Assembly: GCF_026571515.1 (NCBI RefSeq)
Contig: NW_026855186.1
Span: 1 to 64,000, forward strand
Source: Ruditapes philippinarum
Taxonomy: Eukaryota
Reading direction: 5' to 3'
Length of the DNA: 64,000 bases
Below the pieces are notes generated by a model. The model ran no database searches. It was not told the DNA's origin and saw only the letters and a program-made list of their open reading frames with translations. This document shows, one piece after another, positions 17,201 to 47,801 of this stretch. The position numbers and the translations under genes were made by a program. How positions within the stretch are numbered: position 1 is the first letter of the stretch; each line of letters opens with the position of its first letter.

Positions 17201-20200
17201 TAATAACGTGACACTTTACTATAGGGCGTCAATAAAAGGTGATGTTTTTCACTTTAAACGGTTTTTTAATTTGGGTATATGATAAAGAGAATAATATATT
17301 TGTGTAGGGTCATTACTGAATTTATTGAATTCGTTCAATAAATTCAGTATTGAACTTACAGACGATCAATACCGTCTGAATATGAAAATTAAAATAAAAA
17401 TGGAGACGTACTACACTAACTAAAGTTTTAAAATAAATTAGCTATACCTATATCATAACATACTTTGTATGATTACAGAATAAAACTCTAGACGAAATAA
17501 ATGATGGCGATCTAGTTATTGTAACAGACACCTTGACTGAAAACATGAAGCAGATTCTGACTGACAAAAGTAAAAGTGGTTTGAAGGTTTCTGTGGTTTC
17601 TGGCGATCCGAACGAGATGACCAACGACCACCATGGTATATAGAAAAGTTACACAGAGATGCTTGTGACAATACCATACTACATGATACATTTGATAAAT
17701 AATGATAAAAAGTCACATTCATTTAAATAATATGATTGTTTTGCCTCTAATCCTCTACAGATTTTTGCTTACGTTTTTTGAACTTCATATAAAAATTGAC
17801 AGAAAGCAAGTTGAGGGCTTTAGCAGTTCAAAGCAAAATGTCAACTCCGTTCCTTCTGTTTGGGAAAAACAACAACAACAACAAAACATCTAGATCATTT
17901 TGGTATTATAGTATTTTATTTTATGCTTTTCAGTGGATTAATGATTTATCCGTAAAAATCATATTTGATAATTTCACAATGAAAATTATCAAAATATAAT
18001 TTCACACTTTTCAATGACGAAACTACTTTTTTAAGATTTTCCCCATTTGGTACCTCAAATTTATTTTTGCTGACTATTCCGACAATGTCAGGCTGTTTAA
18101 AGAAAAGCAAAGCTGAAATTGATAACTTATATGTCAAAAGTAATAAAAAGAAGAAAACTTACAGTAAGTTACTTCTATTCATTCAAATTACCAATCACCA
18201 AATATCGTCTCTTTAATTTTTTGTTTCATTTTTACAGTCTGAAAAATACATTCCTTCCACATGCAAAACTGCTCTTGATGACATTTGGGAATATTTAAGT
18301 ATCCTACGAGCAAAAACTGCCGTATGCTTTATGAAAACTTGAAAAGCAATGGCAGCTTTCAGTCGAAGAATATGTAAACATTTTTTACCCAGCGTTCGCA
18401 AGGCTTCCAAGTTTTCCAATTTCCTATCCACTTTTTTTGAATGTTTACACATCTGTCAACACTTATTTATTGTCTGTTACAATCCTCAAATAAGTTTTCT
18501 TTCTTTTAAAAAGGTGTATGACTAACAAATCCAAATGATATCCATCTGAATCAAACACAATTATTTTCCTCCAGTGAAATACACAACTTTAAAAATGGCG
18601 GCCGCTTACATTTAACGTAGCCAGGTCTAATATAAATTCGCAGTCAGTAACAGAAATATGGATGGATGGTTGGACTTTTTCTCCTACTAGAATTGTTTGT
18701 TTTTATTATATAAACATGCGATCAGACATGTTTTTTTTTAAATAAAATGAATACTATCAACACCATTTAACGTTGATTGTGGAACTTATTTTTCAGCCCA
18801 TGACTTCTTGTATTTAATGAGAAATTCGACTTTTTTGAGGCTCTAAATGGGGAAACAGATTTTAATATTAACGTAAATATTAAGGAAATTTCGTTTTAAC
18901 TTGTTTTTAAGCATAAAATAAAAAAAAAATGTTTGTTTGTTGTGTAAGAGGTAATTTTATTTCATCGAGTGAACTTTAAAAACAGTATTCTCACTCGTGG
19001 CTACGCCACTCGTGAGAATACTGTTTTTAAAGCCCACTCGATGAAATGAAATTTCATCTTACAAACAAACAAACAAATATCCTCTATGTAGTCGTGTATT
19101 CCCATTTCACATCATTTATTTCTTCTTTTAAAGTGTTTTTTCTTTTTTTATGTTTAATCTTAAAGATTTTCATTCCACAAATACTTTACTTTTCAGACTA
19201 GGAACGGAAGTGATTATCTTTTTTAAGTTACAGGTTAGGGAAGGTAAAATTATTTAATTAAAATGATAAGATTAGTTCATCTCATTACATGATCTGCGGA
19301 GCTTTTTAAATAATAGTTTTGTTTCAGAACATTTCAGCTTGCACCATACTGGAGGAGCTATAGGCCATACACTTTTAGATAGACTGAGAAATGTACTTTT
19401 GGTAGATAACGTAAAAACTGTATTGGTACGTTTTTCTTTTTACAACGTGATAAATACGTCATCTTGAAGAACAGATTCATCATTACTTTCCTAAATCCGA
19501 TTTAAATGATAATCAGTAAACTATTGAATATTACACGAGTGGTCATTTTGTAAACTATTGCAGGATTGTAATTTCGCTTTTCATTGGATAAACATCAGGT
19601 TTGAATATAATCTTTATACACGACTGCTCTCAACTTGTTAATTGGTTTCCGTTTTTTCTACAAATAAAGTAATTTTGCTGCATTTGTAATTTGTTATTAA
19701 TATGTATGACATGTTATATGGCATCGTATAAATTGATGTTTGCAATATAACCCTCACCTTGCGGGTTAAAAAACTAGTACGCATATAACCCTTTATCACG
19801 TGCCATGTAACATGGCACACAACATTTTAACTAACAATATACTAGTATATTATCATAAAACGAATTTAGGGACGTACAAGAAAGCAAGTATTTTGGGAGT
19901 GTTTTATACATCTTTGGGAGAATAAACCGTCGATGGTATAACTGGAAACATAAATTCTCTATCTCTCAAACCAAAAAAAAAACTACAACATATATTGACA
20001 TATATTGAAAGTCACTCCTTTTCATATGATAGGATCGATATATATTAAATCAACTCATTTACTCCTGATTTTTTATTGAACAATCAATCTCGTTACATGA
20101 CGCGTTTGGTCAATTTTAGCAATGACGTTATTTTCATTAATAACGTACGTTCCTCATTAACTGATTAGACTATTTTTTATCTAATTTATAGATAGGTCAA

Positions 20201-23200
20201 GAGGAAACTGAATTACGAGGCAATGAACCAGTTTCAAGAACAGTTGATATAGATAAAACTCTTGGAATGCAAATTTCATTCATCTTTCATTTTGAAGAAG
20301 AGCTGCCTTACATTCGTATAACATCACCTAATGGTACTCTCTACGGACCTGACTCAAACGTTTACTCTGTTGATGAAACTTCAAAAGCGATTCAGTTTTA
20401 TTTCCCGCACATACAGGTAAAACTCGCGTCTTTTACGACTTCTTTAGAATCAGAGACAATTTATTAACAACATGTATATAGATGTATGCCTCCATATTAG
20501 CCAAAATAGTTTAAGAAAATATTAAACTTTAGAAAACTGTACTAAGAGTTGAAAGAAAAGTAAACTGATTCATGTTATAATTAACGTGATTGTTTTGTGC
20601 GATTGATGATTTTGCAGTATTTTTCACCATATTTCTACTGCGTGACTAACAAATAAAGGCTATTTTTTGCACATTTTGACCTCCTTTTGTTCATTGACGT
20701 GGATTGTAAAGTGCCGTTTGCAATGTGTTAATTACTTTTCTTAGTTCACTTCACAATGTTTTACTTTTGTATACATTTTTGAAAAATTTCATGAAAATTA
20801 GCTGGAATATGGAGGCATGCTGCTTAGAATAAAAAAAATTATCTTCCTTTCATGGTAAAGACCACGCCTAATTTGCCTAGAGTTTATTTACATAGATCTT
20901 GTTCATTTTTTATTTTGATTTATCAATGTTTTTATTTACATAACTTTATCTTAGATAGTTTAATCGTTACAGGTTGGAACATGGACGTACACCTTGTCAC
21001 AATCATCGATGACGTCACAAAAAGTACGTGTTACAGTTATTTCTGAAAACATCGCTGAACACGAAGACCCGCTAGTCTTGCGGCAGTCTGTAAAATTTGC
21101 AGACGACACAAATACATCTGTGATTCTTCATGTTGACGCAACACAAGGGGCGAGTCCCTTGATAGGCTTTAATATCACAGCAAAGGTAGGGACGCCAGAT
21201 GGAACAGTGGATTACTTGACACTTCTAGATAATGGAGCAGGTACAATAGCTAAAGAATCCCGTGAAGTTTGAATACAATCTAAATACTAGTAGTTGATAA
21301 TCTTATTTATGCGATGACAATATTTTGTATGAAATTGAAGTTGCGTTCAAGATACTTTTATTATTGTCATAAAAGGTGAATAAAGAGGTTTGCATTTATA
21401 AAGAAGGTTTCATATTAAAACGTACAAATTGATACCTTCGCATAAATCTAATTTTGCCTTTTAAGGTTAACCTTTTGTACTGAATGTTTCAATATGCTCA
21501 AAACCGGTAAGAAGAAACTTTTGTTTTCCTTATTTATAGAGATAGATAAATGTAAGGTTTATGAAAGTAAACCTACATAATTTATGATATTTGAGATCTT
21601 AGATATTTTATTTTACCCAGTGATCAGTCACTAGCAGATATTGTGTGTTTTTTGTCGTAGGAGCTGATATAGCAAAGAACGATGGCATTTACTCGCGTAT
21701 TTACATAGCGCCAAAACTAAGTGGATCGTATCACGTGACATTCATAGTGTCGTCTGGTGGTTCTGGGTCTGTTTTCAGGAAAGAAGAAACAGCGTCAGTC
21801 GTTAATGATGGTATAAATATAAGTATTTCAATTTTTAGGGGAAAATATACTAGATATGATGCATACATAAAATCTCAAAAATGTAAAAAAGGTTCTGCAA
21901 TTATCTGCAGTTACACTCGACAAGGTCTGCTATTAAAGCCACTGCTGTTAGAAAGGTATCTAGAATAAAATATGAATGTCATCTACTCGCAAGAATTATT
22001 TTTAAAATCACGAAGTGCTCGATCTAAACATTCTATTTTCTTCTTCATTTTCTTAAGTGAACGCTACAGTTTAGACAAACAAAGCCAAAACACTAATTTC
22101 CAAGGCTGTCTCGTTTCACTGACTTCGCGCAGACTAGAAATACAAATCATAATATTTAGTCTAAGTTTGATACGTAAAGGATAATCTGTTGAGTATACTA
22201 GACCTAAATTTGGCTAAAGTACAGTTGTTTTCACGAATTGCCAAACATGAGCAAGAAGTGATTACCGGTATTCTGATTTGTTTGAAATGTTTCAGAGCTT
22301 AATCCAGTCAGAAAATCCGTTAGAAAGATACCATTAGACGGAAACATTCAAAGGCAAATTTCGGGTGGAACAATATTCTTGCGTTCCTCGAATCTTAATG
22401 ACCTCATCTTTGACGTCATAGCACCATCAAGAATTATTGATCTCAGAGCGGTGACGTATGTTCCATACAGAAAAACAATGGTGTTAGAATGGACAGCTCC
22501 CGGCGACGACCATGATCACGGAAAACGTAAATACAAAGATGTGGTTTAATTTTGATAAAATCAAGATACAAATCCTGCAAATTTTGTTGTATCATGCACA
22601 CAGTCTACTGTAATGATAAATCAAATACAATTTACACGTTATTCCATAATTCCAAAACTTTGCTTCAGGTTACATAATATATTTTTATAAGTTTTAGCTC
22701 ACCTGTCACAAAGTGACAGGATGAGCTTTTATGATCGCTTTTCGTCCGGCGTCCGTCCGTAAACTTTTACTTTAAATGACATCTCCTAATAAACCACTGA
22801 GCCAATTTCATCAAAACTTCACAGGAATGTTTCTTTGGTGGTCACCTTTAAAAATTGTTCAAAGAATTTAATTTCATGCAGAACTCTGGTTGCCATGGCA
22901 ACCGAAAGAAAAAACTTTAAATTTTTTCTTTTAAAAAATCCAAAGAGCTACAGCTTAGATATTTGGCATGAAACATCTTCTTGTGAGTGTCTACCAAGTT
23001 TGTTCAAATAAAAGCCCTGGGGTCAATATTGGCCCCGCCCCAGGGGGTCATTGATTTTTCCTATATGCATATATTAAAAACTTAAAAAATCTTCTTTTAG
23101 AGAACCTAAAGAGCTAGAGCTAAGATATTTAGCATGAAACATCTTCTAATGGGTGTCTACCAAGTTTGTTCAAATAAAAGCCCTGGGGTCAAAATTGGCC

Positions 23201-24381
23201 CCGCCCAGGGGGTCATTGATTTTCCTTATATGTGTATAGCAAAACTTAAAAATCTTCTTTGAAAAAACCCAAATAGCTAGAGTTTAGATATTAAGCATGA
23301 AACATCTTCTAGTAAGTGTCTACAAAGTTTGTTCAAATAAAAGCCCTGGGGTCAAAACTGGCCCGCCCCTGGGATGTCATTGTTTTTAACTATATGTGTA
23401 TAGTAAAAACTTAAAAAATCTTCTTTTAAAGAACCCAATGAGCTAGAACTTAGATGTTTAGCATGAAACATCTTCTTATGGGTGTCTACCAAGTTTGTTC
23501 AAATAAAAGCCCTTGGGTTAAAATTGGCCCTGCAGGGTGGGGGGGGGGAGGTCATTGTTTTTTCATTATATGTGTGTAGTAAAAATTTAACATCATGAAA
23601 CATTTTCTAAGGTGTGTCTTCAAAGTTTGTTCAAATACAATCCCTGGGGTTTAAACTGGCCCCGCTCCGGGGGCCTATATACAGGTGAGCGACCTCAGGG
23701 CCATCATGGCCCTCTTGTATATTATAATCTTGACATGTAAAAATGTCCCTGAGCTTCTTGGCGTTAGATCTTAGTAAAACATTTGGAGGCTCGATCAAAT
23801 ATGTATGGCACGTTTTATATATGAGCCGCGTCATGACAAAACCAACATAGTGGATTTGCGACCAGCATGGATCCGGACCAGCCTGCGCATCCGCGCAGTC
23901 TGATCAGGATCCATGCTGTTCGCCTACAAACCATATTAACAAGTAGATAAACTGAAAGTGAACAGCATGGATCCTGATCAGACTGCGCTGATGCGCAGGC
24001 TGGTCTGGATCCATGCTGGTCGCAAACGCACTATGTTGGTTTTGTCATGTCGCGGCTCAATTATAATTCATCACCAGATTTTACCATCGTCATTTAGATC
24101 TAGTGTTTTAGATCCTGTTTTACTTTACAGCTGATATCTACGAATTTGTTGTCGGTTGTGGGGTCAAGGACGTTCGTCTTTTTTTGAACTATCTCTCCTC
24201 TGGTGATTACAAAGGTCAAGGTAACGTGATACAAGAAACATTCAACGCACGTGCAAATGGAACTGAAATTGAAACGTTTCTATGGAGTACAGTTGGCAAT
24301 GACAAACCGTATATATTTGCTATTCGTGCTGTTGATAGGTTTGGCAACAAAGGCCAATTTTCAAACCTTGTCACAGCCTAA
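11255..24381 (+). CDS. CLCA: CLCA-like protein, paralog 2, complete (~878 aa, signal peptide, no C-terminal TM); predicted catalytically inactive
   Basis: 13 exons: 11255-11437, 11796-12087, 13414-13596, 13849-13988, 14796-15050, 15445-15648, 17479-17635, 19328-19425, 20192-20416, 20973-21240, 21661-21810, 22296-22526, 24131-24381; total 2637 nt, open frame. N-terminus MSKFLRMVVFIVGICMLALFKPAFG (signal), then LKNNGFTNVVVAIHESVPED, ILLPSTW, GCGKQG, FRWGVFQEY, DNGAGADIAKNDGIYSR and FnIII-like WTAPGDDHDHGK. Confidence 0.95.
18930..19087. mobile_element. Palindromic end of a non-autonomous DNA element, same class as 4286-4465
   Basis: Hairpin centred on CACTCGTGGCTACGCCACTCGTG, ending CAAACAAATATCCTCT (reverse complement of the 4288 start). 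Confidence 0.55.
20484..20830. mobile_element. Old MITE-like repeat
   Basis: Inverted ends ATGCCTCCATATT / AATATGGAGGCAT; interior and right end are similar to ~41490-41695. Confidence 0.5.
22692..23718 (+). mobile_element. Non-autonomous Helentron-associated (HINE/pearl-like) element with internal ~165-bp tandem array
   Basis: 5' TTTTAGCTCACCTG plus hairpin CTGTCAC-aaa-GTGACAG and (GTCC)n microsatellite; ~4.5 units each containing AAGTTTGTTCAAATAAAAGCCCTGGGGTC; 3' subterminal inverted repeat CAGGTGAGC and terminal hairpin AGGGCCATCATGGCCCT; no TSD. Confidence 0.8.
23822..24059. mobile_element. Palindromic (fold-back) MITE, ~238 bp
   Basis: ~100-bp near-perfect inverted arms TGAGCCGCGTCATGACAAAACCAACATAGTG.. 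/ ..CACTATGTTGGTTTTGTCATGTCGCGGCTCA; second copy at 42661. Confidence 0.9.
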
Positions 24382-26557: not shown

Positions 26558-28439
26558 TTACTTAACTGATGAAATATCATAAACTACAATGTTGTAATCG
26601 ATCAATCTGCTAATACATATCTTAGTCATTTGTTGATTACAACAAACTGACAGTATTCCTTTCTGTACAGGTGCAGAAATCTTTTCCATCAGCAATGATG
26701 AAATACCCCCTTTTCTACTATCATCTTTTATGACCTCTCCCATCAGCTTGCCATCAGGTGTAAACTGTAAAACATTATTGGAGCCACATCCAGATACCAG
26801 CACACCACCTGCTTCGGTGAGATAACAACATGTAGCCCCCTTTAATTGTCTATCATTAAATAATGAAATAACCTGACCATTGTTGTCCAGTACTATCAGT
26901 CCATTATTGTAGTCAGCAACATAAATCCTAGTAGCATCCTGACTTACAGCTAAACTGTGTATGTCAGAGAAAAGCTTACGTCCTGACTGATCCTTACTGA
27001 ACTGATGAAGCTTCCTACCAGACAATGTATACATATATACATATGTCTGACTGTCTGAAATATATAAATTTTTGTTTGCATATGCAAGGCCATGACATAC
27101 AAAATCAGTGTTAAACCAATTAACTGTTTTCATTTGTCTTCCTAGTAGAGAAATGAAGTGAATTTCCTTTTTTGATTGAACAGTAACTGCTATTTGTGTG
27201 TATTTGATCAAACACACTTGCCATGGCTTTCCAGGTAGATCATAGTAGTCTGTGCCAGTATAGTTTGACTGTGTAGCCGTTTAAGCTTCCTGTTGTGATG
27301 ATCAGCAAGAATAATTGTACCATCTTCCATACAGCAAACACTTCTGATATTGCAAAATTCTTTATCAGACATAACTTTTACATTATATGATTGTTCTCCT
27401 TTAATATTCAATAGATTGTCAACAGTCTTTATAGATTTCTCTGATAGTGTACCTAGGGTTTTCTTTTGTTCCAGCTGTGTAAGAATTGCCCTATTAGGTT
27501 GAAAATCTACGTCTTCCACAATACTTTTTAATTTTATATCTGATATATATTTGTTGGCAACATTTGCCGTATTCTCTGCCATCTTAACATACACAAACAT
27601 TTCAGATTGATTTGTGTTTGTAGATGCTAATTTATCATTAGCTGATGTGATCATGGACTTGTTTGCCTGTAGTTGTTTTATTACAACGTCTATCTTGTCC
27701 TCAATACATTTGACTTTACTTTCTATCTCATCGATAGAACTGTTCTCCAGCTTGTCAAGAAGTTCATTGATTTCTTGACGGAATTGTCTGATATCAGCCA
27801 ATATTTCTACTTTCCTCTTTAGCAGCGTTTGTTTATCTTGTTTAAATCTATCAGCTTGTTTTGTTAGAACCTTGGCTATTTCCTTGAGTTTTGTTTGAAC
27901 TTCTCTTTGTGAATCTAGGTAATTGTGTGTTTTGAGAAATTCTGGTATGTAGAATGTATCCTTGCATAATCTGAAAAGTAAGATCAGACAGTTTATACAC
28001 ATGAGGCTATGGGATGACTGAGGAGATATTATGTTATTTATTGTAACATTTTTAAATTGAACATTTCAGATATGTTTGTAAAAAAAATAATACGTATATA
28101 TATTATTTTACCTATGATCAACTGCCATACATGTAGAACATCCAACATTATCATGGTTCTGACAGTACATATCAATATGTTTATGACTGTGTCTGTCACA
28201 TCTCTCTGCCGGTGCCCTGCGCACACCTTCGCTTGTTCTTGACGTAACTTGAGATTTATCCAACACCTTGTGACAAGCTAATACAGGTACTTCATTGTGA
28301 ACTTGAACACAACTTCTACAAAAGTAATCATGACAATCTACACTTCAGAGTTTTTGCCTTTATTTTTACACATTGAACATAGTACATCAAATATTTCATC
28401 TGATAGAGTATCCATATTTGTTTGTCCGCCAGTAGCCAT
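26558..28439 (-). pseudogene. RING-less TRIM-like gene (two B-boxes, coiled coil, NHL-like beta-propeller), frameshifted
   Basis: Exon 1 28439-28112: MATGG..CSMCKNKGKNSE [frameshift at ~28343] VDCHDYFCRSCVQVH..CDRHSHKHIDMYCQNHDNVGCSTCMAVDHR. GT-AG intron 28111-27971. Exon 2 27970-26558: coiled coil then propeller repeats, with a second frameshift at ~27265 joining ORFs 27208-28002 and 26558-27217. Confidence 0.85.
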
Positions 28440-29387
28440 ATTATAGTAATTGCATTGAAACGTGTTATCTGAACTGGTCTGTTTACGGATAACAGTGTGC
28501 CAAATTCGTTTTACAGTCCTTTTAAACATAGCAAGTAAATAATAATTAGTAATTTGTTTCAAACTTCTTTCACACCTGTAATGACATTTAACTTATTCCT
28601 TTTTCTCTTTTAAATGATAAATATCATCTCATATTGCTAAGTTATGTGGAAAGGTTCGCCATACTAAGATTATCAATAAAACGCCCTTTTACTTTATACA
28701 CAGTTGTATCTTTATCTGTTAAAATGTTGATACAAAGTCCACATTTATTTTATCTTCCAGATTGATAAACCTACCTAAGATACTAAGTTTTAATTGTTAA
28801 CATAGGCTGTAGTTATATTATACTAGCTTATTAAGAGTTGAAGAATGAATACCGCTTAATCATGTCCCATGAAGCTTTTGGGATGGAGCACTGTTCCATT
28901 ATGGCATTATCCCTATGAACAGACTCAATGAAACCAAGTCTGCAATTTTCATTTTTTGATCCAGGGATCCCGCCTTTTCAATATTTTAAAACATTAACGT
29001 GATGAAAGTAATAAAATATGATAAACAAGATCAACAAGGAAAGGCGGCGTTCAATGAACGCAACCCCCATATGACCCAGCAACAAGAACCAACGGCAAGG
29101 AGCCCAGGCGGACCCCGAACAAAAACAGGACAGGGCAAAGACAGAGCACGGACAGGTTAATCATTAAATGATAAATAATTTGGAACTGATTAGGAATTCA
29201 AAGAAAATAATAATAGGCCCACAAAGGGGACAGGAGACCGGGGGAAGGGGGGTGGGGGTAATTAAAGAAATAAAAACTAGAGGCAATGGGGAAGATACTT
29301 ACCGTAGACGAGAAAACAACAAGGGACACAAGCAAAAGTGTCACCAAAACAGTATGAAACAACATAGACATACATCTGAGGAACACA

Positions 29388-29482
29388 GTGGGGCGCCGCC
29401 TTGGAACGGTCAGCAGCATAATAATGACTGCTGGGGAGTTTAAACCGGTTAATGGTGCACCAAACCTCGCTCTTAGCCCCAC
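29388..29482 (-). ncRNA. Candidate twister-like self-cleaving ribozyme, type-P5 permutation
   Basis: Manual fold: P5 GUGGGGC/GCCCCAC; P2 GAGC/ACUC; L1 GAGGU and UUU^AA; P1 UUGGU/ACCGG; P3 CAGCAG/CUGCUG; bridging A; P4 CCG/CGG; 8-nt L4 UUCCAAGG able to form both pseudoknots. Confidence 0.6.
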
Positions 29483-29700
29483 CATGTTCCTATAAACGAG
29501 ACAGTGTAAATAAAATGAATCCCCGCCAAGTGAAATTCTAACAGTTGTCATGGTTACAAAAGGTTAAATAAGTAAAACACTAAAATGATCATGTAGAAAC
29601 ATATAAAAGTAAACCCAATGACCATAACAAAAGTACTCAATGTCCTAAAGGAAGACAGAGCAACAAGAAAATCACCTACAAGGGCCCGACGAAGCAAGGC

Positions 29701-29759
29701 AGAAGACGAACATTAAGACAATTCAGTCCCAAAGGGCTTTACGAACTATCCATCATAGA
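29701..29759 (-). promoter_or_regulatory. SECIS-like hairpin, split from its helix-I 5' strand (30059-30065) by an insertion
   Basis: AUGAU, 10-bp helix GGAUAGUUCG/UGAAUUGUCU, unpaired AAA, mini-stem CCC-UUU-GGG; 3' core reads UAAU rather than UGAU. Confidence 0.5.
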
Positions 29760-30051
29760 ATAGATAAATACAGAATCCCTAAAGAAAGCCCAACACGGCA
29801 AAATTGAAAATGTTGCAGGCTCGGTTTGATTGAGCCTGTTCATGGACGGTACTGGAAAGTGCAAGTTACCGTCCACGCCCCCTAGCACCGGCTTAAGCAG
29901 AATTCAACATTTAAACATGAAATAGTAAAATTTTGAATTTAGAAACATCCGCAGATGTGTTCATACGGCGGTTATCATGGAACCTTCAATGTGACACTTC
30001 CGTGCCATTCCATGAAAAGCGGCGTATGGTCCCCAAGTAATAAAAAGCGTC
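29760..30051 (-). mobile_element. 292-bp structured short interspersed element, copy A
   Basis: Flanked by 7-bp direct repeat TCATAGA (29753-29759, 30052-30058); absent at the homologous site of the second retroelement copy (~44400). Orientation is arbitrary. Confidence 0.85.
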
Positions 30052-30644
30052 TCATAGAGTCTCCCACTTGGTCCGTCAGATGCAATCAAAAGAGGAAAGC
30101 GTAGTGTCCAACTGTAAAAGGATTGAACACTAAACATGCAGTATGTCTTAAAATAGTAGGGTCACAACCTCTTTTAATAAAACGTTTAATGATGTTAGTA
30201 AAAACAGCAGAAAATTATTATGACCAAAAATCTTACAAAGTGGTTTGTAAATCACATCACCATAAAATTCAGATTACGAAGAATTGTTTAAAAGCGCTAT
30301 TGAATTTTGAAATTAAATCAAAATTACGATTGTAAACTTTTGTAAAATATTTCCGTAATTTATGATAGCGGTTGCCCTGCTTAAAAAACTTGCTAGTAAT
30401 GAAAATATTACGCTCGTTGTTATCCTTTACGTTGCTACAAGCTCTAGCGAATCTAATTAACTGAGAAACATAAACCCCGTAAGATGTTGCATGGGGTACG
30501 TCTCCATCTAAATGTGGATAATTAACTATACAAAAGTCAAAGTCATCTCTTTTATCATAGATTTTCGTGTGAATAGAATTGTTGTTGATAGTAATATGCA
30601 GATCCAAAAATGATGTATTAAATTTCAAGAGTTCGTTTTATTAA

Positions 30645-30936
30645 ACACGCTTTTTATTGCTTGGGGACCATACGCCGCTTTTCATGGAATGGCACTTAAG
30701 TGTCACATTGAAGGTTCCATGATAACCGCCGTATGAACACATTTGCGGATGTTTCTAAATTCAAAATTTTACTATTTCACGTTTAAATGTTGAATTCTGC
30801 TTAAGCCGGTGCTAGGGGGCGTGGACGGTAATTTGCACTTTCCAGTACCGTCCATGAACAGGCTCAATCAAACCGAGCCTGCAACATTTTCAGTTTTGCC
30901 GTGTTGGGCTTTCTTTAGGGATTTTGTATTTATCTA
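30645..30936 (+). mobile_element. 292-bp structured short interspersed element, copy B
   Basis: Near-identical inverted copy of 29760-30051; 9-bp direct repeat TTTTATTAA (30636-30644, 30937-30945); interrupts the RT frame at ..LQLNK/TNS. Confidence 0.88.
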
Positions 30937-33900
30937 TTTTATTAAGTTGTAGTTCATGCGGATAAATGTCAGACACCATTTGATCAAAATAAGGATTATC
31001 TAAATTAAAAATATCATCAAGGTATCTGGAAGTATTATTAAATGCGACTATAACATCTTGTTGTTTATCTTCAGAGAGACTCAACATAAAGTCTCTTTCA
31101 TAGAAGTACAAAAACAAATCGGCGACCAGGGGTGCACAATTAGTACCCATAGGAATTCCTATGATCTGTTTAAATAGGGTATTACCAAACCTGACATAAA
31201 TGTTGTCTAAAAGAAAAGAGAGTGCTCTACAAACTTCGTCACAGGTCCACATAGTATAATGTTTAACAATACCGTTAGTAAAAAAAGCTTTGTTAGAATT
31301 ACATGCTAGAAAGGTAACTTTTTCCCAAACGAAACCCAAAACGAAAATAACCCGATCAGCTAGAAGAAAATGTTTTTCATTGACATAATCATATAACAAG
31401 AAATGTAAACCACCAATAAGATATTTTGAAAAATCCCTATACTGACTGCTTAGTTTAATTTTTATTTTGACGTGTCTATTACTAATAATGGGCTAATAAA
31501 TCAAAACAGATGCAAGTCCTGCATACACAGTCTGCAATGTAATACATGTAATGAAAACGTGTATGCAACTTCTTAATTAAAACTGTGGTTGCAATATTGT
31601 ACTGTGAGACAAAATGATGATATACAACAAATTAGTGTTGTAATATTTCTGGTCCTTCGTGATCATTGATTCGTTGAAATTTGAGTACCGCTTAAGCCGG
31701 TGCTAGGGGTGTGAGAAATGTTGCACTTTTTCATTACGTACAGACTCAATCAAACCGAGTCTGTCAATTTTCATGTAATTGTGTTGTGATTAATTTTTCC
31801 GAGGGATATCCAGATTTTTAATTTATTTTTATGCGACAGTTTCAAAATAATAAACGAAATAAATATAGAATCGAGGTAAAACAATCAGATTTATTGGTAA
31901 GCATTCAACTAGACTAATTATTAAGACCCAGTTTTCTAGAAAATAGTCTATTGGTGTAGTAGTCCAAAGCGTAAAAAAACCTGTTAGCAACATAACTTAT
32001 AAAAGCATTCAACAAAGAATAATTATCAAATGTAATCAATGACAGAATACTTTGACCTAAAGTAAAAAGTTTCTTTTTTTCTGCAGAAAAAGTTGACTTT
32101 CCATCTAACCAAGGCAGCTACTATTGCGGGGGTCTAGCTTATGGAACATCTTGAGATGTTAGAGTGAATTTAACCGAGTCTGCAACATTTTCGATTTTGA
32201 CTTGTTGGACACTTTTTAGGGATGCTGTTTTCCTCTATTTTACAGTCGCATTAGTGATATTTTTGCCGTGTGGTGGCTGTAAGAATTTGTCATTCACCAA
32301 AACATTAATATAATCTAAGATTAAATTCTTAATTTTATAAGTAATATATATGTCTCAGATTTATGGCAGAGAAAGTGATGTCAAAATCCTAAACCACAAA
32401 GCCAAAAATTGTATTTTTATTGTAATGTGCATTGTCACTTTTGCACGTTGCGTTTTCGCTAGCGACAACATAACAAATCTCATTTTCGTCTTGCGTCTTG
32501 TCGCTACCCGACATTGCTTTATGAATAGTAGCATATATGCATAATGCTATGTAGTTTTAAATTGTGTTATTTTGTTCAGCCACTTGGCAACCTCGATTCT
32601 AATTGATACTAATTGAAAATGTCGCGTAACTGAATTCTCCTCGCTGATTTTCTATCATTAGGTTTGTTGTTGGTTTAATTTGGAGTCATTAGCTTCTACA
32701 AGCTTGTTAAAGAAAAAAGGCTTTTAATCAACACAAGTTAACGATAATATTTTTTATTTAAAAATTCTCTGTATTAAACGAAGCAATCAAAATAACTCCA
32801 TTGATTGAAGTTATTACGAATGGATGCTTGCTTTTTTTTCGAGCATCATAAGCAGCTTTAGATTATTTTCTCTTTTCGGAACATTAATGAACCAGATGTA
32901 TATTAACCATTTTCCGGCTTAACAACCTTGTCAAAAGCATTCACCATTTAAGAAAAATAAAAATAAGAACTGATTGAATAGCTAACAATGCAGACCACGA
33001 TCACACATGTTACTGCTAGATTAGTTTGCGCTGGTTGCATAGTTATATTCAATTGCCAAGATCAACAGGTGGTGTTATTTACACCCCAGTAAATTGATGA
33101 AGGAATGGCGTAATTTACTCCCAAGTAAATTGATACCGTAAATTTTACAAGGTGTGATTGAACAAAAACAATGACGTCACGATTATATTATTAGTTATAA
33201 ATATTTTGATAGTTTTGTTTTGCCCTATATAAACGATTGTTTGCATATATAACCTGAGCGAGGTAATATTGTAAACAACTGTTTATATGCGCCCATATTA
33301 CCAGCCAGATGCCTTAAAATCGAATTTATAATACAGCAACATCCATTTTTAGAGAAAAGTAAGATGTTTTGGTAAATTGACAGCTGCCGAGTATACAAAA
33401 TATATAAACGTCACGAAATGCATAAATGTAAAAGAAACAGTGAATTTGAGAGAAGAAGCCGTACGTTATCACGATCAACACGGGAGAGGAAGTGTTACAC
33501 GAGCGATCGAGTTCTTATGATAACTTGTCAAGGAGTTCTTGTGATAACTGTCACGGAGTTCGTCAGAAAACTATTGTATATACTGCAAAAACACTCGTCA
33601 AAATGGTAATTTTCATCTTTAAACAGTGACTTTTAGGTGCTAAATTAATCTTTCAGTTATCATAAGAACTCCATCCATCGTGTAACAATTCCTCCTCCGT
33701 GGATCAAACCGGTGGAAAATTCTCTCGCTTCGAATCTGGTAACGCGCATTTCAGATGAAGTACGGGACGAAACATCATGACAAAAAGTCCCGTGTGTCCG
33801 GAAAATTGTGGAGAAGGTTATCGTATGTACCTTTACACCAGGACATCATGAATTATGGGAAAAAAAAGAGGAAAACACTACTTTTCGGCGGCATCTGCCA

Positions 33901-35505: not shown

Positions 35506-36088
35506 ATCAATTAATGACATAACTTCGGTTGTATACAATAACAATGAACAACTATGTAATGTTATTGCGGGACATTTTAACAATATTTATTGCAGAATTA
35601 AACGTGTCAGTTTATTAAACATGTTTTAAAAACATGAAGTTTGTTCAGAACATGCTAAAAACTGTTATGCAGATCTAAATGAAGAAAATAAATCAAAATT
35701 AGTCTGATTTAGTAAAAGATTATTTGCTCTATGTTTTGCATTAACACCAGAGTCATTATCCGCCTAGTTGATATCTGATATCATCTACTTTAAAAAACAA
35801 AAGAAAAAACAATGTGATAAACAAAATTATTTCTACAACATGCTAAGACATATAATTGGTTTTTTATAAAGAATGTTCATTTATATTTCAGATATAATTT
35901 TCATTGGCGTCTTAAGCATGAATAACGCCGCGTGTTGAAGCCGATATAATTTAAAATAAATCTAACGAGTTATTCTGATAGGTAAAGGACAAAACATTGG
36001 TTTTACGCTATACTTTTACCATACTTTTCTTTTGATATATATATATTGTTTCTCAGACGGTTTGATCATACAAGTTGAGGATTTCAAG

Positions 36089-37234
36089 ATGGAGAATAAC
36101 ACATCATCAATTTATAATGCATCAGATTTTAATGCGAATAGAACTTACGCGGATATTCCGGACTGGGCAAATATATCTGGAATTATTTTTATGACCCTAG
36201 TGACGATAGCTGGAATTGCCGGGAATAGCCTAATCATAGTAGTGCAGTTGAAAACCCGCGACAAAACAAGTACGGACTTTCTAGTTTTAGCGATGGCGGC
36301 TTTTGAGCTTTATTGCTCTGGAATCAACAACAGTCTAAGTGTGCTTCGTAGTTTCAGAATTATTTGGACATCGATTGTTTCCTCGTCGGTGTGCTGTTTT
36401 GAAACATTTTCTATTTATCTAACAAGTATATCAACAACATTTCTGCTCACGGCAACAGCTTTGGACCGATATATTCAAACTTGTAAACCACTAAACAGTT
36501 ATTATTCCAAATCAAACGCTAAATGGATCTGTTTGACCTTGGTTGTATCAAGTGTTATTCTTTCAGCACCGAGCATTGGAATCATTACAGCAGACATGGA
36601 AAGCCTTGACTGTGTAAGGAATATGGAAAATATTGTACTAGCAACTATTTTCGATCTATTTCTGTCAGCTGCATTCCTTGCAATGTTTGTCATTGTCGTC
36701 GTTTGTTATTCGAAAGTCACGATAATGTTACGTAGACGTCGCCGTCAGAAAGAGATGGTAACAAACACGTGCACAAGTGGGACGTATCCTTTAGCTGTAC
36801 GCCAGCAATTGAAAATTCCTAGAAACAAAGTATGCCCAACATCGACACAAGAGACTCTCGAGAACTGCCCGAGTACAGACGTGATGGAAGATGACACAAA
36901 CAACGCGCATGAATTACATTCTCAAGAGGTGAGTCAGGTATCGGCTGCAAGCCAAACAACTGGTCAAGCGGCTATCCGAAAGAACCGGTCTGAACGGAAG
37001 ATTCTGAACCGAACAACCCTGATCATGTTCCTAATAACAACGATCTATATTTTAACCTGGCTGATTCACTTCATTGTCGTCTGGATTGTGCCACCTATGA
37101 CCTCTAGTGGCAGAGCAGTTCTTCACCTTGTAGCGGGCCTGTACAGAATAAATTGTATGACGAATGCGATATTCTATATAACAATGAGTTCGAGATTTAG
37201 ACAGAATGCCAAAAAGCTTTTTCGTCGGCATTAG
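36089..37234 (+). CDS. Orphan rhodopsin-class (class A) GPCR, uninterrupted CDS, 381 aa
   Basis: Seven hydrophobic segments, N-terminal N-glycosylation sequons, TM1 GN, TM3 DRY, TM5 CYSKV, TM7 NAIFY, helix 8 SSRFR. First ATG at 36089; probable 5'UTR intron 35982-36056. Confidence 0.93.
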   Translation: MENNTSSIYNASDFNANRTYADIPDWANISGIIFMTLVTIAGIAGNSLIIVVQLKTRDKTSTDFLVLAMAAFELYCSGINNSLSVLRSFRIIWTSIVSSSVCCFETFSIYLTSISTTFLLTATALDRYIQTCKPLNSYYSKSNAKWICLTLVVSSVILSAPSIGIITADMESLDCVRNMENIVLATIFDLFLSAAFLAMFVIVVVCYSKVTIMLRRRRRQKEMVTNTCTSGTYPLAVRQQLKIPRNKVCPTSTQETLENCPSTDVMEDDTNNAHELHSQEVSQVSAASQTTGQAAIRKNRSERKILNRTTLIMFLITTIYILTWLIHFIVVWIVPPMTSSGRAVLHLVAGLYRINCMTNAIFYITMSSRFRQNAKKLFRRH

Positions 37235-41375: not shown

Positions 41376-42660
41376 TGATAATAATAATAATAATAAAATG
41401 TACTAAGATTTTAGGAAAGGTATAAAGATTCAATATTCTAGTAAAATGTTACATGTAATGTGCGATTTAATACCGAATTTTTCAGTATTTATAACTATGA
41501 TTCTACTGCGTAACTAACACACTATGGGCTATTTTTGCATGTTTTGACCACTTTATAGTAATTTACATATGTTGTAAGTGTCATTGATAATGTGTAAATT
41601 GCATTCATTTGGTACCTTTAAAATATTATACTGTTAAATACATTTTAAATTTTCATGAAAATTAGCATACATCTGGAGGCGTGCTTCTTTAATACTCCCG
41701 TTATTGCCGTCAGTCATTTCATAAAGGAAATTGTTTCAAATTAAACGAATTTTCCATTAATGTTAATATTCATGTTAATGTCTGTCTATAGCTTTCACAT
41801 TAAATAAGTCACGCAAAGCATTAGCATCTGACAGGTGAAAGAAAATTAATGATCAGACTTTGTTACTGCAATCACAGTACATCTCTAATTCACACCAAAG
41901 AGCAAATTAATAAAAAAGGGAAAAAAGGAGAGAAAAAACGTTAGCGCTGATTGAGAGTATTGTCCTAAAAACCACTGAGGTGCAGATGAGAGTTACTTTA
42001 TACATTATATATTTCTTTTCATAAATCTATATTGTACTGTGTAACACACACCTATTCGCCACTATTTGTGATACGTTTTGAAAGTAATAAGCCAATCAAA
42101 TATGCCGTCGGTTCAACGTCCAAGTCAATAGATAAAGGCGGTAACACGGTAAGCAACCGTGTGCATATAAATAGTAAACATCACAAAAATGACTTACATA
42201 CATATTTTTATCATTTCGTGAATAACATAATTCAAAATATATAGGCTACCTCTTGGTATATTATATAACCTTTAAAGACATGAATGATGACATGTCCGGG
42301 GTCTGTACTCGGGGGAATGAACCGTCGTTTAGCCTAGAATCCATCCATCCATCAATCCATCCATCCACCAATCCATAAATACATACATACGACCTTGGGC
42401 GTGATGGGTGCAGTCCTGAAGCCTAAATTCGTCACTTGAATTTATAATATGTCCATTGCCTTACGGTCAAGACAGTCCTCAACTGTTCAATACAGTGGTA
42501 TTAGAATAATAAATTCAGTTTCAAGTAAACTAAGGTAAGATGTGACTTTGTAACATAAGGAGGAGGCTACCTCGAGTTGCCTATATGACTGAAATACTGT
42601 TGGGAATAGGCGTAAAATAATGAAACAAAATAATTAAACCTCGAGTTGTTCTCAATAAGT

Positions 42661-42897
42661 TGAGCCGCGTCACGACAAAACCAACATAATGGGTTTGCGA
42701 CCAGCATGGATCCAGACCAGCCTGCGCATCCGCGCAGTCTGATCAGGATCCATGCTGATCCCCTATTAACCCTATTACAAGTAGAGAAACTGATAGCGAA
42801 CAGCACGGATCCTGATCAGACTGTGCAGATGCGCAGGCTGGTCTTGATCCGTGTTGGTCGCAAACCCATTATGTTGGTTTTGTCGTGGCGCGGCTCA
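42661..42897. mobile_element. Palindromic MITE, second copy
   Basis: Same inverted arms as 23822-24059. Confidence 0.9.
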
Positions 42898-44051
42898 AAT
42901 TAAACTGTATACCACTTAGATCCAAGTATTGATTTTGAATTATTTTAGTCGAGTATACATTTATGCAGGCGTCACACTGTCCTGACTTTGGCATCAGATG
43001 GACACACGAATTCGGATCTGATCGTAATAACATCGTGCCATTCGAGAGGGTATCTTTTGCCTTCGTATGATCCCCGGCTTAATATTTCAAGCTCCGGCAG
43101 CAACCCCGCGAGCGGTTCCAAAATTTTTTGGCATGCCAAAAAATTGCCCGAAGACATTGCGAAGGTTCATTTTCGTGTTGAATTCGTCAATTTTGCCCTT
43201 CGTAAGATCGTCGTGAAGCCATCTTGTCAAATTGTGTAGTCTTCGTCTTTTCTACGTGTGATCATCGGTGCAATCTGGCAATTTTAGTAAACACGAAGAT
43301 TCCCGATAGTCTTAAATGGGAACACGACTATGTGAAGGCCCCGCAATACCGCCATGTCACCATCGTATTTTAGTAAGATGTCATCGAGATGGGACCAATT
43401 TTTAATTGAAAGAAAGCAATTTTTAATGGCTCAAGCATTGCATGTTTAGCATCGTGGACATATAAACGGCTGGACCATCTTCCTCATCTGTCACTCTTGC
43501 ACATCTTTACAGAGACATCAAAAGCTTCCATTATTTGCAATTAATTTACAATTATTTTCAGTTTATTTCATGCAGATTAACATGCTTTGGTGATGAGTCA
43601 ACCAAGAAAAAGAAGGCAGTAGCAATGTAATTTTAAAGACACCTTAGAAAATATGATGAGGCCCACAGCCCCACTTGGGTGGTATGATAAAGTTTAATCA
43701 AATATGATAAACAAGATCAACAAGGAAAGGCAGCGTTCAATGATCGCAACATGTACTCACACGACCCAGCAACAAGAACCAAGTAAAACAACAGGACCCC
43801 CCCCCCCCCCCCCTAAAAAGGGCGCAAGGTTGAGCACGAATAGGCTTATCACTTAAATGATACATAAGACGAAATAATGGTAAACGACAAGGAAATCAAA
43901 GAAAACAAATAAATGATTGATTGATCAAATAAATAAAACTAGGGGCAAAAGGAAACATACTTACCGTAGACGAGAAAACAACAAGGGACACCGGCAAAAG
44001 TGTCACATAAACAGTATGAAATAACAAAGACGTGCATCTGAGGAATAAAGA

Positions 44052-44140
44052 GGGGCGCCGCCTCGGACCGGTCAGCAGCGTAAGTACTACTGGGGATTTT
44101 AAACTGATTAATGGTGCATCAAACCTCACTCTTAGCCCAC
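44052..44140 (-). ncRNA. Candidate twister-like ribozyme (type P5), second degenerate copy
   Basis: Same fold as 29388-29482 with P1 UUGAU/AUCAG, P2 3' GAGU, P3 CAGUAG/CUGCUG; L4 mutated to GUCCGAGG. Confidence 0.5.
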
Positions 44141-44341
44141 CATGTTCCTATGAAATAAAATGAATCCACGCCAAGTGAATTTATAACAGTTGTTATGGTT
44201 TCAAAAGGTTAAAGAAGTAAAACACCTAAATGATCATGTAAATATAAAGGAATACCCATATGACCATAACAAATGTACTCAATATTTTAAAGGAAGCCAG
44301 AGTAAGAAAAAATCACCTACAAGGGCCCGGCGAAGCAAGGT

Positions 44342-44407
44342 AGAAGACGAACATTAAGGCAATTCAGTCCCAAATGGCATAAAGAACTGTCCATCATAGA
44401 GTATCCC
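44342..44407 (-). promoter_or_regulatory. SECIS-like hairpin, uninterrupted but degenerate copy
   Basis: GGGAUAC-UCU-AUGAU-GGACAGUUC..GAAUUGCCU-UAAU-GUUC-GUCUUCU; apical AAA lost in this copy. Confidence 0.45.
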
Positions 44408-45928
44408 ACTTGGTCCGTCAGATGTACTACGGAGGAAAGGGCCATCTTTTAAAGTGTTGAACACTAAGCATGCGGTATAGTTGGTCCGTCAGATGTAATC
44501 AAAAGAGGAAAGGACGAACTGTTAAAGTGTTGAACACTAAGCATGCGGCATATCTAAAAAAGTAGGGTCAGAACCTCTTTTGGTTAAACGTTTAATAATT
44601 TTAGGAAAGGCCACACAAAAAATTACAATGACATCTCCATTAAAATAATTTTTGAATCACTATTTTTAAATCAAAGTTACCATTGTAAAATTTTGTAAAA
44701 TATTAACGTAATTTATAATAGCGGCAGCCCTGTTTGAGTAGTTTGCTAGTAATGAAAATATTTAGCTTCTTAAAATCCTTCACGTTGCTAAAAGCTCTAG
44801 CGAATCAAATTTACTGAGATACATATACCCCGTCATATGTTGCATGCGGTACTTTTCCATCTAAATGTGGATAGTTACTATACCATATTCAAAGTCATCA
44901 CTTTTATCATAGATTTTTGTGTGATTGGAATTGTTTTTGATAGTAATATCAAGAGCAAAAATAAAGTTTAAACGTAGTTGTATGCACATCTTGTGTCATT
45001 TTCGGGACAGTGTGACGCCTGAATTAAATGGATCAAATACGGGAATTGAAAGAATTTAAGGACATAAATGTTCTCCGGGATAGAGATTATCTCTTTGAAT
45101 TTATGACTGAAGTTGCATTTTATCAGAAATTTCGATTAACGAAGGAGCGTTTTTAATATCTAATATGCGGAATGATACATGTTGATGAACTATAAAGGAT
45201 GTATTATCAGTACTTATCCAAACTTACGGCTGCCAAAATGAAGTGAATTGATACAATTTCCAGTCGGAAATTTATTGACCAAAGATACTTCATCATTTCA
45301 CAATTATGTTATTCTTAATCATCTCATAATATATCTTTTTAACAATACTGTTTTATTCAAATATTTGCCGTTTGTATTTGCCAATATCACTATTTAACTA
45401 TTTTAATTGTCTAAACTTAACTATTTTAATTGTCTAAAGTAGAGTTCACTATTCATAAAACGTAAAAAAATGTTGTTGATGGTTTATCTATCAGCTCATA
45501 TATACATTGTGCACACTCCCTCGTAAATAGAAATTTCTGTGAAAAAATACAACAACAAAACGTTTGATATAAATTCAATGGGATTATCCTTACTCCTAAG
45601 TATCTGTCTTTCATCATGTATTTATTCATTCTTTCTGTCAGTTCAAGTTTAAGATATATTTAAATGTATATGGGACCAAAATGATTCATAATCAATACTC
45701 AAATTTAAGTTGTATTCAGTATTTATCTATTAAGAACATTTTAAGGTAGCCCCCTCCTAATCTCACAAATTCTCAATTTGAATACTGTTGAATCACCCTT
45801 AAGAATGTGGTCTGCTTTTTAAATTTTTCTTTTGACGTCTTATCTGTGATATGCAGGCTTCATAACTTCTGTTCCCCTTTCAAAATTCCATTTTATTTAG
45901 TTCCACCAATTGTTTTCTCGTTAAGGGC

Positions 45929-46222
45929 ACATGCATCTTTTTACTTGGGGACCATATGCAGCTTTTCATAGAATGGCACTTACATGTCACATTGAAGATT
46001 TTATGATAACCGCCATATGAACACATCTGCGGATGTTTCGAAATTCCAAATTGTACCAGTTCATGTTAAATGTTTAATTCTGCTTAAGCCGGTGCTAGGG
46101 GGCGTGGACGGTAGTTTGCACTTGACAGTACCGTCCATGAACAGACTCAATCAAACCGAGCCTGCAACATTTTCAGTTTTTCCGTGTTGGGCTTTCTTTA
46201 GGGGATTCTTATTTTTATCTAT
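45929..46222 (+). mobile_element. 292-bp structured element, copy C
   Basis: Full-length diverged match to 30645-30936; no clear TSD. Confidence 0.85.
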
Positions 46223-46631
46223 CATATCTTAGTGTACTCGAAACTTACTTTATAATCTGATAAAATGTTTTCTAAAATTTTAGGACCGCTAGGCAATCAT
46301 ATGAGATTTTCTCAATGAGGATGAGTGATAAGGGTCTAAATAATCGTCTCTTAAAAGCTGAAACATTTATTGACCTCTAAATCCCTTTTCTCGTTTAAAA
46401 CGGTTGTTTCATAAGCTTTTAACGACAAATGAGATCGGAAATAGTAATTGCATCACACAATGCCTTAAAGTCTTGTTTAAAAGCATTCAATTATTTCGCC
46501 GGTGATTTAACGACGTGGGTTCTGTTTTGATTAACAGACAAATAGGAAAAGTAACTAGACTTAAAAAGGGTTTGAGTACACTCATACCTCTATAAATGTG
46601 TTTGATACAAAACTGTTGACATTAGAAAACG

Positions 46632-47801
46632 ATGAACGAGACAGACAAAGCAAGTTTTTCAAACAACTTTACCCTTTCTGGATGGGCGGAGGTATTAAAT
46701 ATAATAATTTTGTCGGCGGTAGTTATTTTCGGTGTATTAGGAAATGGAATTATTATCATTGTGCAACTAAAGAATCGGGAAAAATCAAGTACGGATTATT
46801 TTGTTGGGACGATGGCTGTGTTTGAGCTGTTTTGTGCAGGTTTTAATAGCCTCATTGTAGTTTTTAACAATATTTCCGGCTTATGGTATGTTATAGCGAC
46901 CTTGACATTGTGTTCCGTTCGTGCATACGCTTCACTTGTCGCAACTATTTCGTCTACGCTCCTACTCACTGCTATCGCAATTGACCGTTATATTCTCACT
47001 TGTAAACCTTTCAATACATGTTACTCGAAGCAGAAAGCAAAATGGATTTGTATCGGTGTAATCGTTATTAGTATCGTCGCCTCAACACCATCGTTGGCAC
47101 TAGCAACTTTTGACGATGAAAATATGAAATGTTTGCAAACTGTGAAGAATCCAGTTCTTCATAACATATTGCAGATGTCCCTTGGAGCAACTTATGTCGT
47201 TATGTTTGTTGTAGTTATATTTTGCTACAGTAAGGTGACTATTTTAATACGGAGAAGACACAAACAAAGGATCAATAATGTTCCCTTAACGTCAGCATCA
47301 ACATCTAAACATTCGACTGTATCAATAAAGCTCTCTTCCAAAGCTCGTTTTGTAAAGAATAAAAATAAAATTGCACCAAAACATCAATGCAAAGGTATTG
47401 AAATAGCTACAGTTGAGAATAGCTTGAAACCTGCAAGTACTGGGCATGAAACTGATCTAGATCTGAAAAGTACCATTCGAGATAAAGAAGAGGTTGTACG
47501 TATCTCAGATACTGAAATACAGGCACTTGAAATGCAGAAGATAAATCGAACAACACTGATCATGTTTCTGATCACGACAATATACATATTAACATGGGTT
47601 ATTCACTGGTTAAATAACGCTTTAGTGTCACGTGATACAGTTGCTGGGCGAAATGTCATTCATCTAACAACATATTTGTACATGATTAACTGTGTAACAA
47701 ACCCTATTTTCTTTATAGCTATGAGCTCTAAATTTCGAAGAAATGCTAAAATACTTTTCACGAGAATTATAAACGTCTGCAGATCTTCCCGCCAATATTA
47801 G
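46632..47801 (+). CDS. Orphan rhodopsin-class GPCR, uninterrupted CDS, 389 aa; paralog of 36089-37234
   Basis: Seven hydrophobic segments, GNG, AIDRY, CYSKVT, NRTTLIMFLITTIYILTW (identical to paralog), NPIFF, SSKFR. Confidence 0.95.
   Translation: MNETDKASFSNNFTLSGWAEVLNIIILSAVVIFGVLGNGIIIIVQLKNREKSSTDYFVGTMAVFELFCAGFNSLIVVFNNISGLWYVIATLTLCSVRAYASLVATISSTLLLTAIAIDRYILTCKPFNTCYSKQKAKWICIGVIVISIVASTPSLALATFDDENMKCLQTVKNPVLHNILQMSLGATYVVMFVVVIFCYSKVTILIRRRHKQRINNVPLTSASTSKHSTVSIKLSSKARFVKNKNKIAPKHQCKGIEIATVENSLKPASTGHETDLDLKSTIRDKEEVVRISDTEIQALEMQKINRTTLIMFLITTIYILTWVIHWLNNALVSRDTVAGRNVIHLTTYLYMINCVTNPIFFIAMSSKFRRNAKILFTRIINVCRSSRQY

Follow-up and report, generated by a model that had tools for sequence, protein, structure and literature searches.

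Naiads are Penelope-like retroelements, and four Naiad families carry in-frame UGA codons together with a SECIS, as reported in the portions of Craig et al. (2021, PMC8557442) accessible to us. The first-pass annotation of the locus described here had also stated that Naiad selenoproteins with a SECIS are established, and that study bears it out. The same portions describe Naiads as devoid of canonical hammerheads and do not mention twister ribozymes. Selenoprotein Naiads have so far consisted of four consensus sequences, i.e. predictions only, and a literature search, with subscription papers outside its coverage, retrieved no further papers on them. Regarding the SECIS itself, the accessible part of one study (PMC2761289) states that the tandem GA pairs are conserved in all eukaryotic representatives and needed for SBP2 binding, and the accessible part of another (PMC1874613) reports them in all seven SBP2-selected RNAs. 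The system itself has thus been known since 2021; what the present locus adds is a family in which a UGA inside the reverse transcriptase (RT) occurs together with a SECIS core that departs from the consensus and with traces of selection.

The window, i.e. the whole stretch of 64,000 nucleotides from Ruditapes philippinarum that was analysed (contig NW_026855186.1), harbours two copies of a Naiad Penelope-like element, both on the minus strand. The first is a fragment that extends from about 31327 to 29009 and whose frames encode an RT core and thumb. Its RT core with the motifs GIPMG and YLDD (30938–31327) agrees with the protein P0211 at 128 of 129 residues. The C-terminal part of the RT and the thumb (30089–30624) show private frameshifts and a deletion and were located by tblastn with the protein P0360 (80% identity over 177 amino acids, breaks included). 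An in-frame TGA directly after LNKTNS (30625–30627) is a candidate selenocysteine codon, and the terminal TGA of the ORF (30086–30088) follows immediately after FLF, where the 177-residue proteins of the family end. Further downstream lie the 5′ arm of SECIS helix I (30059–30065), which is split off by an insert in this copy but contiguous in the second copy (44401–44407) and in the relative L001, and the SECIS body (29701–29759), which is delimited by sequence, fold, Rfam SECIS_1, a model of relatives and alignment. They are followed by a conserved twister-like structured motif (29378–29485) and by the rest of the 3′ region (29009–29377), the latter recognised by self-alignment with the second copy.

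This second copy (43695–44972) comprises the 3′ end of the family, is about 77% identical to the first and more decayed, and contains an uninterrupted SECIS (44342–44407) and a twister-like motif (44040–44143). A 70-bp tandem duplication of its ORF end (44410–44552) lies just upstream of the SECIS. Both copies are 5′-truncated, at about 31327 and 44972, respectively, a trait expected of Naiad insertions. Neither an endonuclease nor a DKA region was found in the window, and since a full-length relative used as query matches nothing further 5′, the first copy must have lost its upstream part. Pfam did not recognise the RT pieces of the window. In phylogenetic terms the window RT groups with Naiad RTs, and the ORF ends after RT and thumb without a C-terminal endonuclease; an N-terminal GIY-YIG endonuclease as well as CxC and DKA motifs are present in the relatives L002 and L005. 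Both window copies themselves are dead.

The insert in the first copy is a 292-bp repeat (29760–30051) located within the internal loop of the SECIS and flanked by a 7-bp direct repeat, the target-site duplication TCATAGA (29753–29759 and 30052–30058). A second copy of this repeat sits inside the RT in the opposite orientation (about 30645–30937, 97% identity) with the 8-bp duplication TTAATAAA, and another is found at 45938–46222 (89%). Fragments occur at 31673–31773, 32172–32242, 53962–54054 and 59034–59161. The repeat is thus dispersed, has several internal hairpins and is associated with target duplications of varying length (7 and 8 bp). Apart from these elements, the window contains on the plus strand two long single-frame ORFs for rhodopsin-family GPCRs (35966–37234 and 46626–47801; Pfam 7tm_1) and an exon at whose end a protein kinase-like motif begins (51561–52436). 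On the minus strand, a coiled-coil-like frame is followed by an NHL-repeat frame (26558–28065), and these frames resemble the TRIM/NHL-type genes that are common in bivalves. Two families of long palindromic MITE-like elements (4283–4465, 18909–19087, 23815–24066 and 42655–42904) and a tandem repeat array (22907–23673) were also noted.

The own family of the window element corresponds to a protein cluster of eight members (P0122). All seven family proteins that reach the RT site end with LNKTNS, precisely where the window has its TGA. A C-terminal family piece of 177 amino acids begins just downstream of the RT stop and ends at FLF, which fixes the position of the terminal stop; both pieces are encoded on contigs of matching sizes (2399, 2662 and 2718 nt). 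We had to discard the idea that the stop after KTNS and a T-run before the terminal TGA are frameshifts private to the window, because the family proteins show both as features of the family. Variants that read through the RT site have Ser (P0358, P0353), Leu (P0017) or Trp (P0238), the codons of which are each one base away from TGA. As this site is occupied by Ser in 193 of 223 matches and lacks a conserved Cys, the TGA could represent a nonsense change. That the stop falls on the one site recoded in Naiad_Scon argues, on the other hand, for an origin under working recoding. What is new in any case is that an in-frame stop, TGA in the window, interrupts the RT of this family where Naiad_Scon has its fourth UGA. 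A further TGA at the position eight codons after the DKA motif (DKA+8) may be deduced from protein starts: five of the eight family proteins, or six with one short fragment, have their first residue seven codons beyond DKA+8, which would fit a stop at that position.

The first-pass annotation had claimed that removal of the insert restores a SECIS fold, and this could be reproduced. When the 292-bp insert and one copy of the 7-bp duplication were taken out in silico, the minimum-energy structure had the SECIS shape (−19.0 kcal/mol; z = −2.2 against 500 dinucleotide shuffles). Helix I consists of 7 bp (5′ arm 30065–30059, 3′ arm 29707–29701) and is followed by an internal loop; helix II has 10 of 10 pairs (29751–29742 with 29725–29716). 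An unpaired AAA (29740–29738) precedes an apical mini-stem of 3 bp (29736–29728). The 5′ core reads AUGAU (29756–29752) and the 3′ core UAAU (29715–29712). The gap between the terminal TGA (30088–30086) and the 5′ arm of helix I measures 20 nt, the distance given in the earlier annotation and in line with selenoprotein Naiads, whose SECIS lies within about 20 nt of the stop. The first copy thus possesses the 5′ RUGA core, both helices and an AAR 11–12 nt above the core, whereas the 3′ GA of the tandem sheared pairs is replaced by AA. As had been noted before, this G-to-A change is common to both copies (base 29714 in the first and 44355 in the second). The uninterrupted copy at 44342–44407, which had been invoked to justify removal of the insert, is indeed contiguous and has the same UAAU. 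In this copy the AAA is lost (it reads UAU), helix II contains an A.C mismatch, and the sequence folds no better than its shuffles (z = +0.37).

By itself, the window hairpin is a weak SECIS signal. With Rfam SECIS_1 (RF00031) it scores 19.4 bits (E = 0.84), below the gathering score of 35, and the second copy gives no match. When the 64 kb are searched with a model derived solely from 14 relatives, the two copies come second and third of seven matches (E = 0.043 and 0.068), behind an AT-rich stretch at 7286–7326 (E = 0.01). A strict SECIS descriptor finds neither copy, in keeping with the insert and the lost AAA, and it also misses 7 of 18 relatives. What raises the hairpin above chance is positional homology: L001, the nearest relative among the matches listed, matches both window flanks at 74–75%, and its hairpin reaches 38.8 bits, above the Rfam cut-off. 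The L001 protein is 76–80% identical to the window family, the closest among the loci fetched, and seven further hairpins at the ORF ends of relatives score 26.6–30.3 bits.

A scan with the RT tail had returned at least 27 metagenome loci and one genome contig; scans of viral contigs and a plasmid search gave no relative. Using 14 relatives as training set for a covariance model and keeping matches with E < 0.001 (three weaker ones were dropped), we obtained, among the matches listed, 22 hairpins in 21 of 28 loci (20 distinct sequences, the training set included). Five of the seven listed loci without a hairpin match stop at the RT match itself. The 3′ GA is kept in all 22 of these hairpins (20 distinct), again among the matches listed, even where the 5′ core has decayed. 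In the alignment of the 14 relatives, 85.9% of the cells are paired and 15 of 17 pairs show two-sided changes; none of 500 shuffles scored as high, and slid controls reached 36–52%. The codon at DKA+8 is TGA in all 11 readable loci (9 distinct) among those listed, and the three database proteins that read through this position have Cys there. Reading through TGA opens frames of 990–1075 codons in L002, L003 and L005, in which TGA also occurs at endonuclease cysteines. The Cys-aligned TGA codons, the canonical GA core and the covariation, the lack of which would have spoken against the first-pass annotation, are therefore all present in the relatives. The selenoprotein Naiads in L002, L003 and L005–L008 are nearly complete and vary in which UGA codons they have, extra ones being located in the CxC region in L006–L008 and in the thumb in L007 and L008. 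Two pattern matches (L029 and L030) were rejected as relatives, since neither forms the hairpin and both appear to have arisen by chance. The genome contig (L028, NZ_WACP01000033.1), a 2-kb contig of a Paenibacillus assembly, carries a Naiad with a canonical SECIS and two tandem twister-like motifs and is most likely animal contamination of that assembly.

In the RT tree, the window family (P0211) belongs to a seven-row group with the clade of L001 and P0027 (support 91/88), and its exact place is supported by 80/61. On this topology, the window family is placed as sister to a Naiad_Mmer-like group. Because about 20 further distinct loci display SECIS and UGA with strong covariation, the arrangement of both is a clade-wide trait. 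We are highly confident that the window hairpin is a homologue of the published Naiad SECIS. Colinearity with Naiad_Mmer, the canonical cores, covariation and Cys-aligned TGA codons of the relatives, and the TGA in the RT of the family itself support, at the level of sequence, the proposal of the earlier annotation that this retroelement family recodes, or once recoded, UGA as selenocysteine.

The earlier annotation had also described a stop–SECIS–ribozyme cassette. Its layout was recovered, since a structured motif starts 216 nt past the SECIS end in the first copy; the ribozyme part is only twister-like, and the Rfam twister models match neither the window motif nor the second copy nor the relatives. 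The distance is 210–222 nt in seven loci and 180–372 nt over all ten loci that have both features among the matches listed. Eleven sequences share conserved blocks and three covarying stems, which by consensus features resemble a circularly permuted twister. The core string of the motif is also present in both published clam consensus sequences, Naiad_Mmer and Naiad_Scon. The cassette is hence common to the whole clade, both published clam families included, and not peculiar to the window family. Self-cleavage of the motif is putative. An RNA run was set aside as evidence for expression or cleavage, as its depth is equal on both strands and no read ends pile up at the motif, which a fragmented library need not show. 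No paper joining twister and Naiad appeared among those listed in our search, subscription papers lying beyond its coverage.

The alignments further point to a possible origin of the SECIS. The AUG of the window core starts 33 nt past the last conserved Phe, and a core-like RUGA is found at 32–33 nt in 12 of 18 loci. A distance of 33 nt corresponds to codon 12, which is the first Met of a D-S-M-M-x-P-T tail that ends related proteins (P0003, P0116, P0180 and P0209; in the window, the register covers 30086–30040 plus 29759–29735 on the minus strand). The stop of these proteins is codon 17, which in the window corresponds to the UAA at the entry to the AAA loop. We infer that the 5′ arm of the SECIS is a former coding tail that was set free by an earlier stop, and this register suggests how a transposon acquired its SECIS. 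In L027 (1430–1522), a canonical hairpin overlaps a D-S-M-M-type tail. P0180 and P0209 start just after DKA+8 and yet run through such a tail. Together, these alignments suggest SECIS elements that overlap ORF ends, possibly in Cys-type families too. In the accessible part of the supplement of Craig et al., where line breaks can hide matches, the tail was seen in Naiad_Mmer only.

To what extent the AA core represents the family was addressed by aligning reads and contigs from four runs to the second copy. From 117 differences, the 40 best supported were considered, of which 38 carry the letter of the first copy and none falls on a site where the two window copies agree. Position 44355 is absent from these best 40 of 117, whereas its neighbours 44330, 44341 and 44375 are present, at 99% in at least one run. 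The apparent cut-off of the best 40 lies near 93%, and 44359, for which a near-fixed difference was expected, is likewise missing from them. T>C differences number 10–12 per run compared with 10 accounted for by the first copy. A near-fixed G at 44355 is therefore unlikely, and a G majority below about 93% or a mixture would be compatible with the best 40 of 117. We rejected both the absence of 44355 from the best 40 as proof of an A and the use of contig depth for reading this base. On balance we infer that the AA core is the majority state of the family. At 44034 and 44303, DNA contigs are split (about 35–80% other letter) and RNA reads show the letter of the first copy at 92–94%, hinting at subfamilies, one of which dominates the RNA.

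The RT tails of the two copies were also compared for traces of selection. The 121 alignable codons contain 58 base differences, 21 synonymous and 37 non-synonymous, and randomly moved changes gave 13.3 ± 2.7 synonymous ones (p = 0.0044). Site-count tests returned p = 0.003–0.02 at a transition bias of 1–2 and p = 0.05–0.08 at 3–4; the tests concern two copies only and are unconditioned. This excess suggests that part of the divergence arose in source elements with a constrained RT tail. In the simplest reading, the AA would be older than the divergence of the copies and compatible with translation; the alternatives are an exchange of 3′ ends or two hits.

Expressed in kink-turn nomenclature, the altered core base amounts to G2nA (our own mapping). 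Both window copies retain the 1n adenine and an intact 5′ core. As far as the accessible text of PMC3985660 goes, an A.A at 2b-2n is isosteric with G.A and occurs naturally, and such a kink-turn binds L7Ae. The accessible text of PMC5061560 states that an asparagine of L7Ae contacts the O6 of G2n and that G2nA blocks ion-induced folding of a kink-turn. Binding of SBP2 to a kink-turn with an A.A core was not found in the accessible parts of these two papers, and our literature search, subscription papers lying outside it, revealed no paper on a SECIS with an AA core. As to whether the change means loss of recoding throughout a subfamily or a variant kink-turn, the two options left by the first-pass annotation, the evidence leans slightly toward the latter.

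Our tentative explanation, to which we grant not quite an even chance, is that the hairpin is the Naiad SECIS of a family with stops at selenocysteine sites and that the G-to-A change is a family-level feature leaving a weakened, usable kink-turn. That an AA core works, if weakly, is a prediction made with similar reserve. In a full-length element, the ORF, with the endonuclease ahead of the RT, would be broken by UGA codons; the SECIS past its end would bind the host SECIS-binding protein, so that the ribosome could insert selenocysteine at UGA. The terminal UGA, at a distance of just about 30 nt from the core, would serve as a stop. Tandem transcripts would be cleaved by the twister-like RNA about 220 nt downstream, and the SECIS would stay with the upstream, ORF-bearing RNA. 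The putative step is recoding by the AA core. A somewhat improbable rival keeps the same Naiad SECIS and regards it as killed by the G-to-A change: the AA lineage would be widespread and non-autonomous, copied by the RT of relatives with a GA core, and its 3′ end might be exchanged between lineages. The invariant 3′ GA of all 22 relative hairpins among the matches listed and of the SECIS literature speaks for such a dead signal, as do the additional defects of the second copy, and non-autonomous derivatives of Penelope-like elements are reported in the accessible part of a preprint (bioRxiv 10.64898/2026.07.22.740005). It is harder to reconcile with the ORF pieces of the family, which are nearly invariant and unbroken save for the stop at the site recoded in Naiad_Scon, and the synonymous excess between two AA copies would then require an exchange of 3′ ends or two hits.

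One could also suppose a canonical GA core in the active family and regard the window copies as a minor decayed branch or as independently mutated, in which case the AA would be meaningless. A near-fixed G should then have appeared among the best 40 of 117 differences like its neighbours 44330, 44341 and 44375. Moreover, both copies carry the A despite their different decay and although the other changes listed are not common to them, and two independent hits would be an event of about 0.3%, as estimated from the divergence of the copies. Since the base at 44355 is readable only indirectly and the T>C counts of 10–12 per run slightly exceed the 10 explained, this supposition retains some ground, and we regard it as unlikely. 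Very improbable is the view that the hairpin is no SECIS at all but has folded by chance or serves the RT as a generic 3′ stem, and that it lies over a relic of a coding tail. The sub-threshold Rfam scores of the window copies and the frame that the 5′ arm shares with the D-S-M-M tail would fit it, yet it is already contradicted by homologous hairpins that keep RUGA, AAA, GA and strong covariation, one of which passes the Rfam cut-off, and that go together with TGA at conserved cysteines. Returning to the usable AA core, a bolder version, possible though on the doubtful side, holds that the family is autonomous and makes its RT via UGA, with a natural A.A-core SECIS, falling outside the consensus on which search tools rely, as a weak, selenium-dependent throttle of transposition. 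In this version the Naiad SECIS would have grown from the ORF tail, its AUGA deriving from the Met codons of D-S-M-M and its AAA loop from the former stop codon, and would form one cassette with a twister ribozyme.

The outcome matters in either direction. Should UGA be recoded by the AA core, natural eukaryotic SECIS elements would not all obey the rule of two invariant G.A pairs, genuine elements would be escaping SECIS searches, and a transposon would be using a weak signal to adjust how much of its own enzyme is made. Should UGA not be recoded, the family would provide a clear example of how one base can turn a selenium-dependent element non-autonomous.

Compared with known systems, the first copy shares helix I, the internal loop, AUGA, helix II and the AAA bulge before a mini-stem with the eukaryotic SECIS (RF00031; type 2 according to the accessible part of PMC2761289) and differs by the absent 3′ G of the tandem GA pairs and by its score (19.4 versus 35 bits). 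The A.A at 2b-2n next to an intact G1b.A1n recalls, by our mapping, Kt-23 of Thelohania solenopsae and G2nA variants of the SAM-I kink-turn (accessible parts of PMC3985660 and PMC5061560), which, in contrast, belong to an rRNA or a riboswitch and are bound by L7Ae. Hammerheads in the pseudo-LTRs of other Penelope-like elements and type-P5 twisters likewise are conserved structured RNAs near the 3′ end. The closest counterparts are the two clam Naiads, as judged from the accessible parts of PMC8557442. Naiad_Scon (Sinonovacula constricta) has its fourth UGA at the same RT site (LNKANN-UGA versus LNKTNS-TGA) and the same order of SECIS and twister-like motif, yet it has a canonical GA core and a UAA stop and by eye looks more distant in sequence. 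Naiad_Mmer (Mercenaria mercenaria) is colinear with the window element in the RT tail and 3′ region and, by eye, similar in the place and spacing of its SECIS, including the 44 nt from the core to the 3′ arm of helix I; it also has a UGA close upstream that is taken as the stop, and the same downstream twister-like motif. Its SECIS was classed as type I by Craig et al., and its sequence, inspected by eye, would also allow a short apical stem. It differs from the window element in having UGAU instead of UAAU as 3′ core, a stop three codons after FLF rather than directly after it, and Ser at the RT site where the window has an in-frame TGA.
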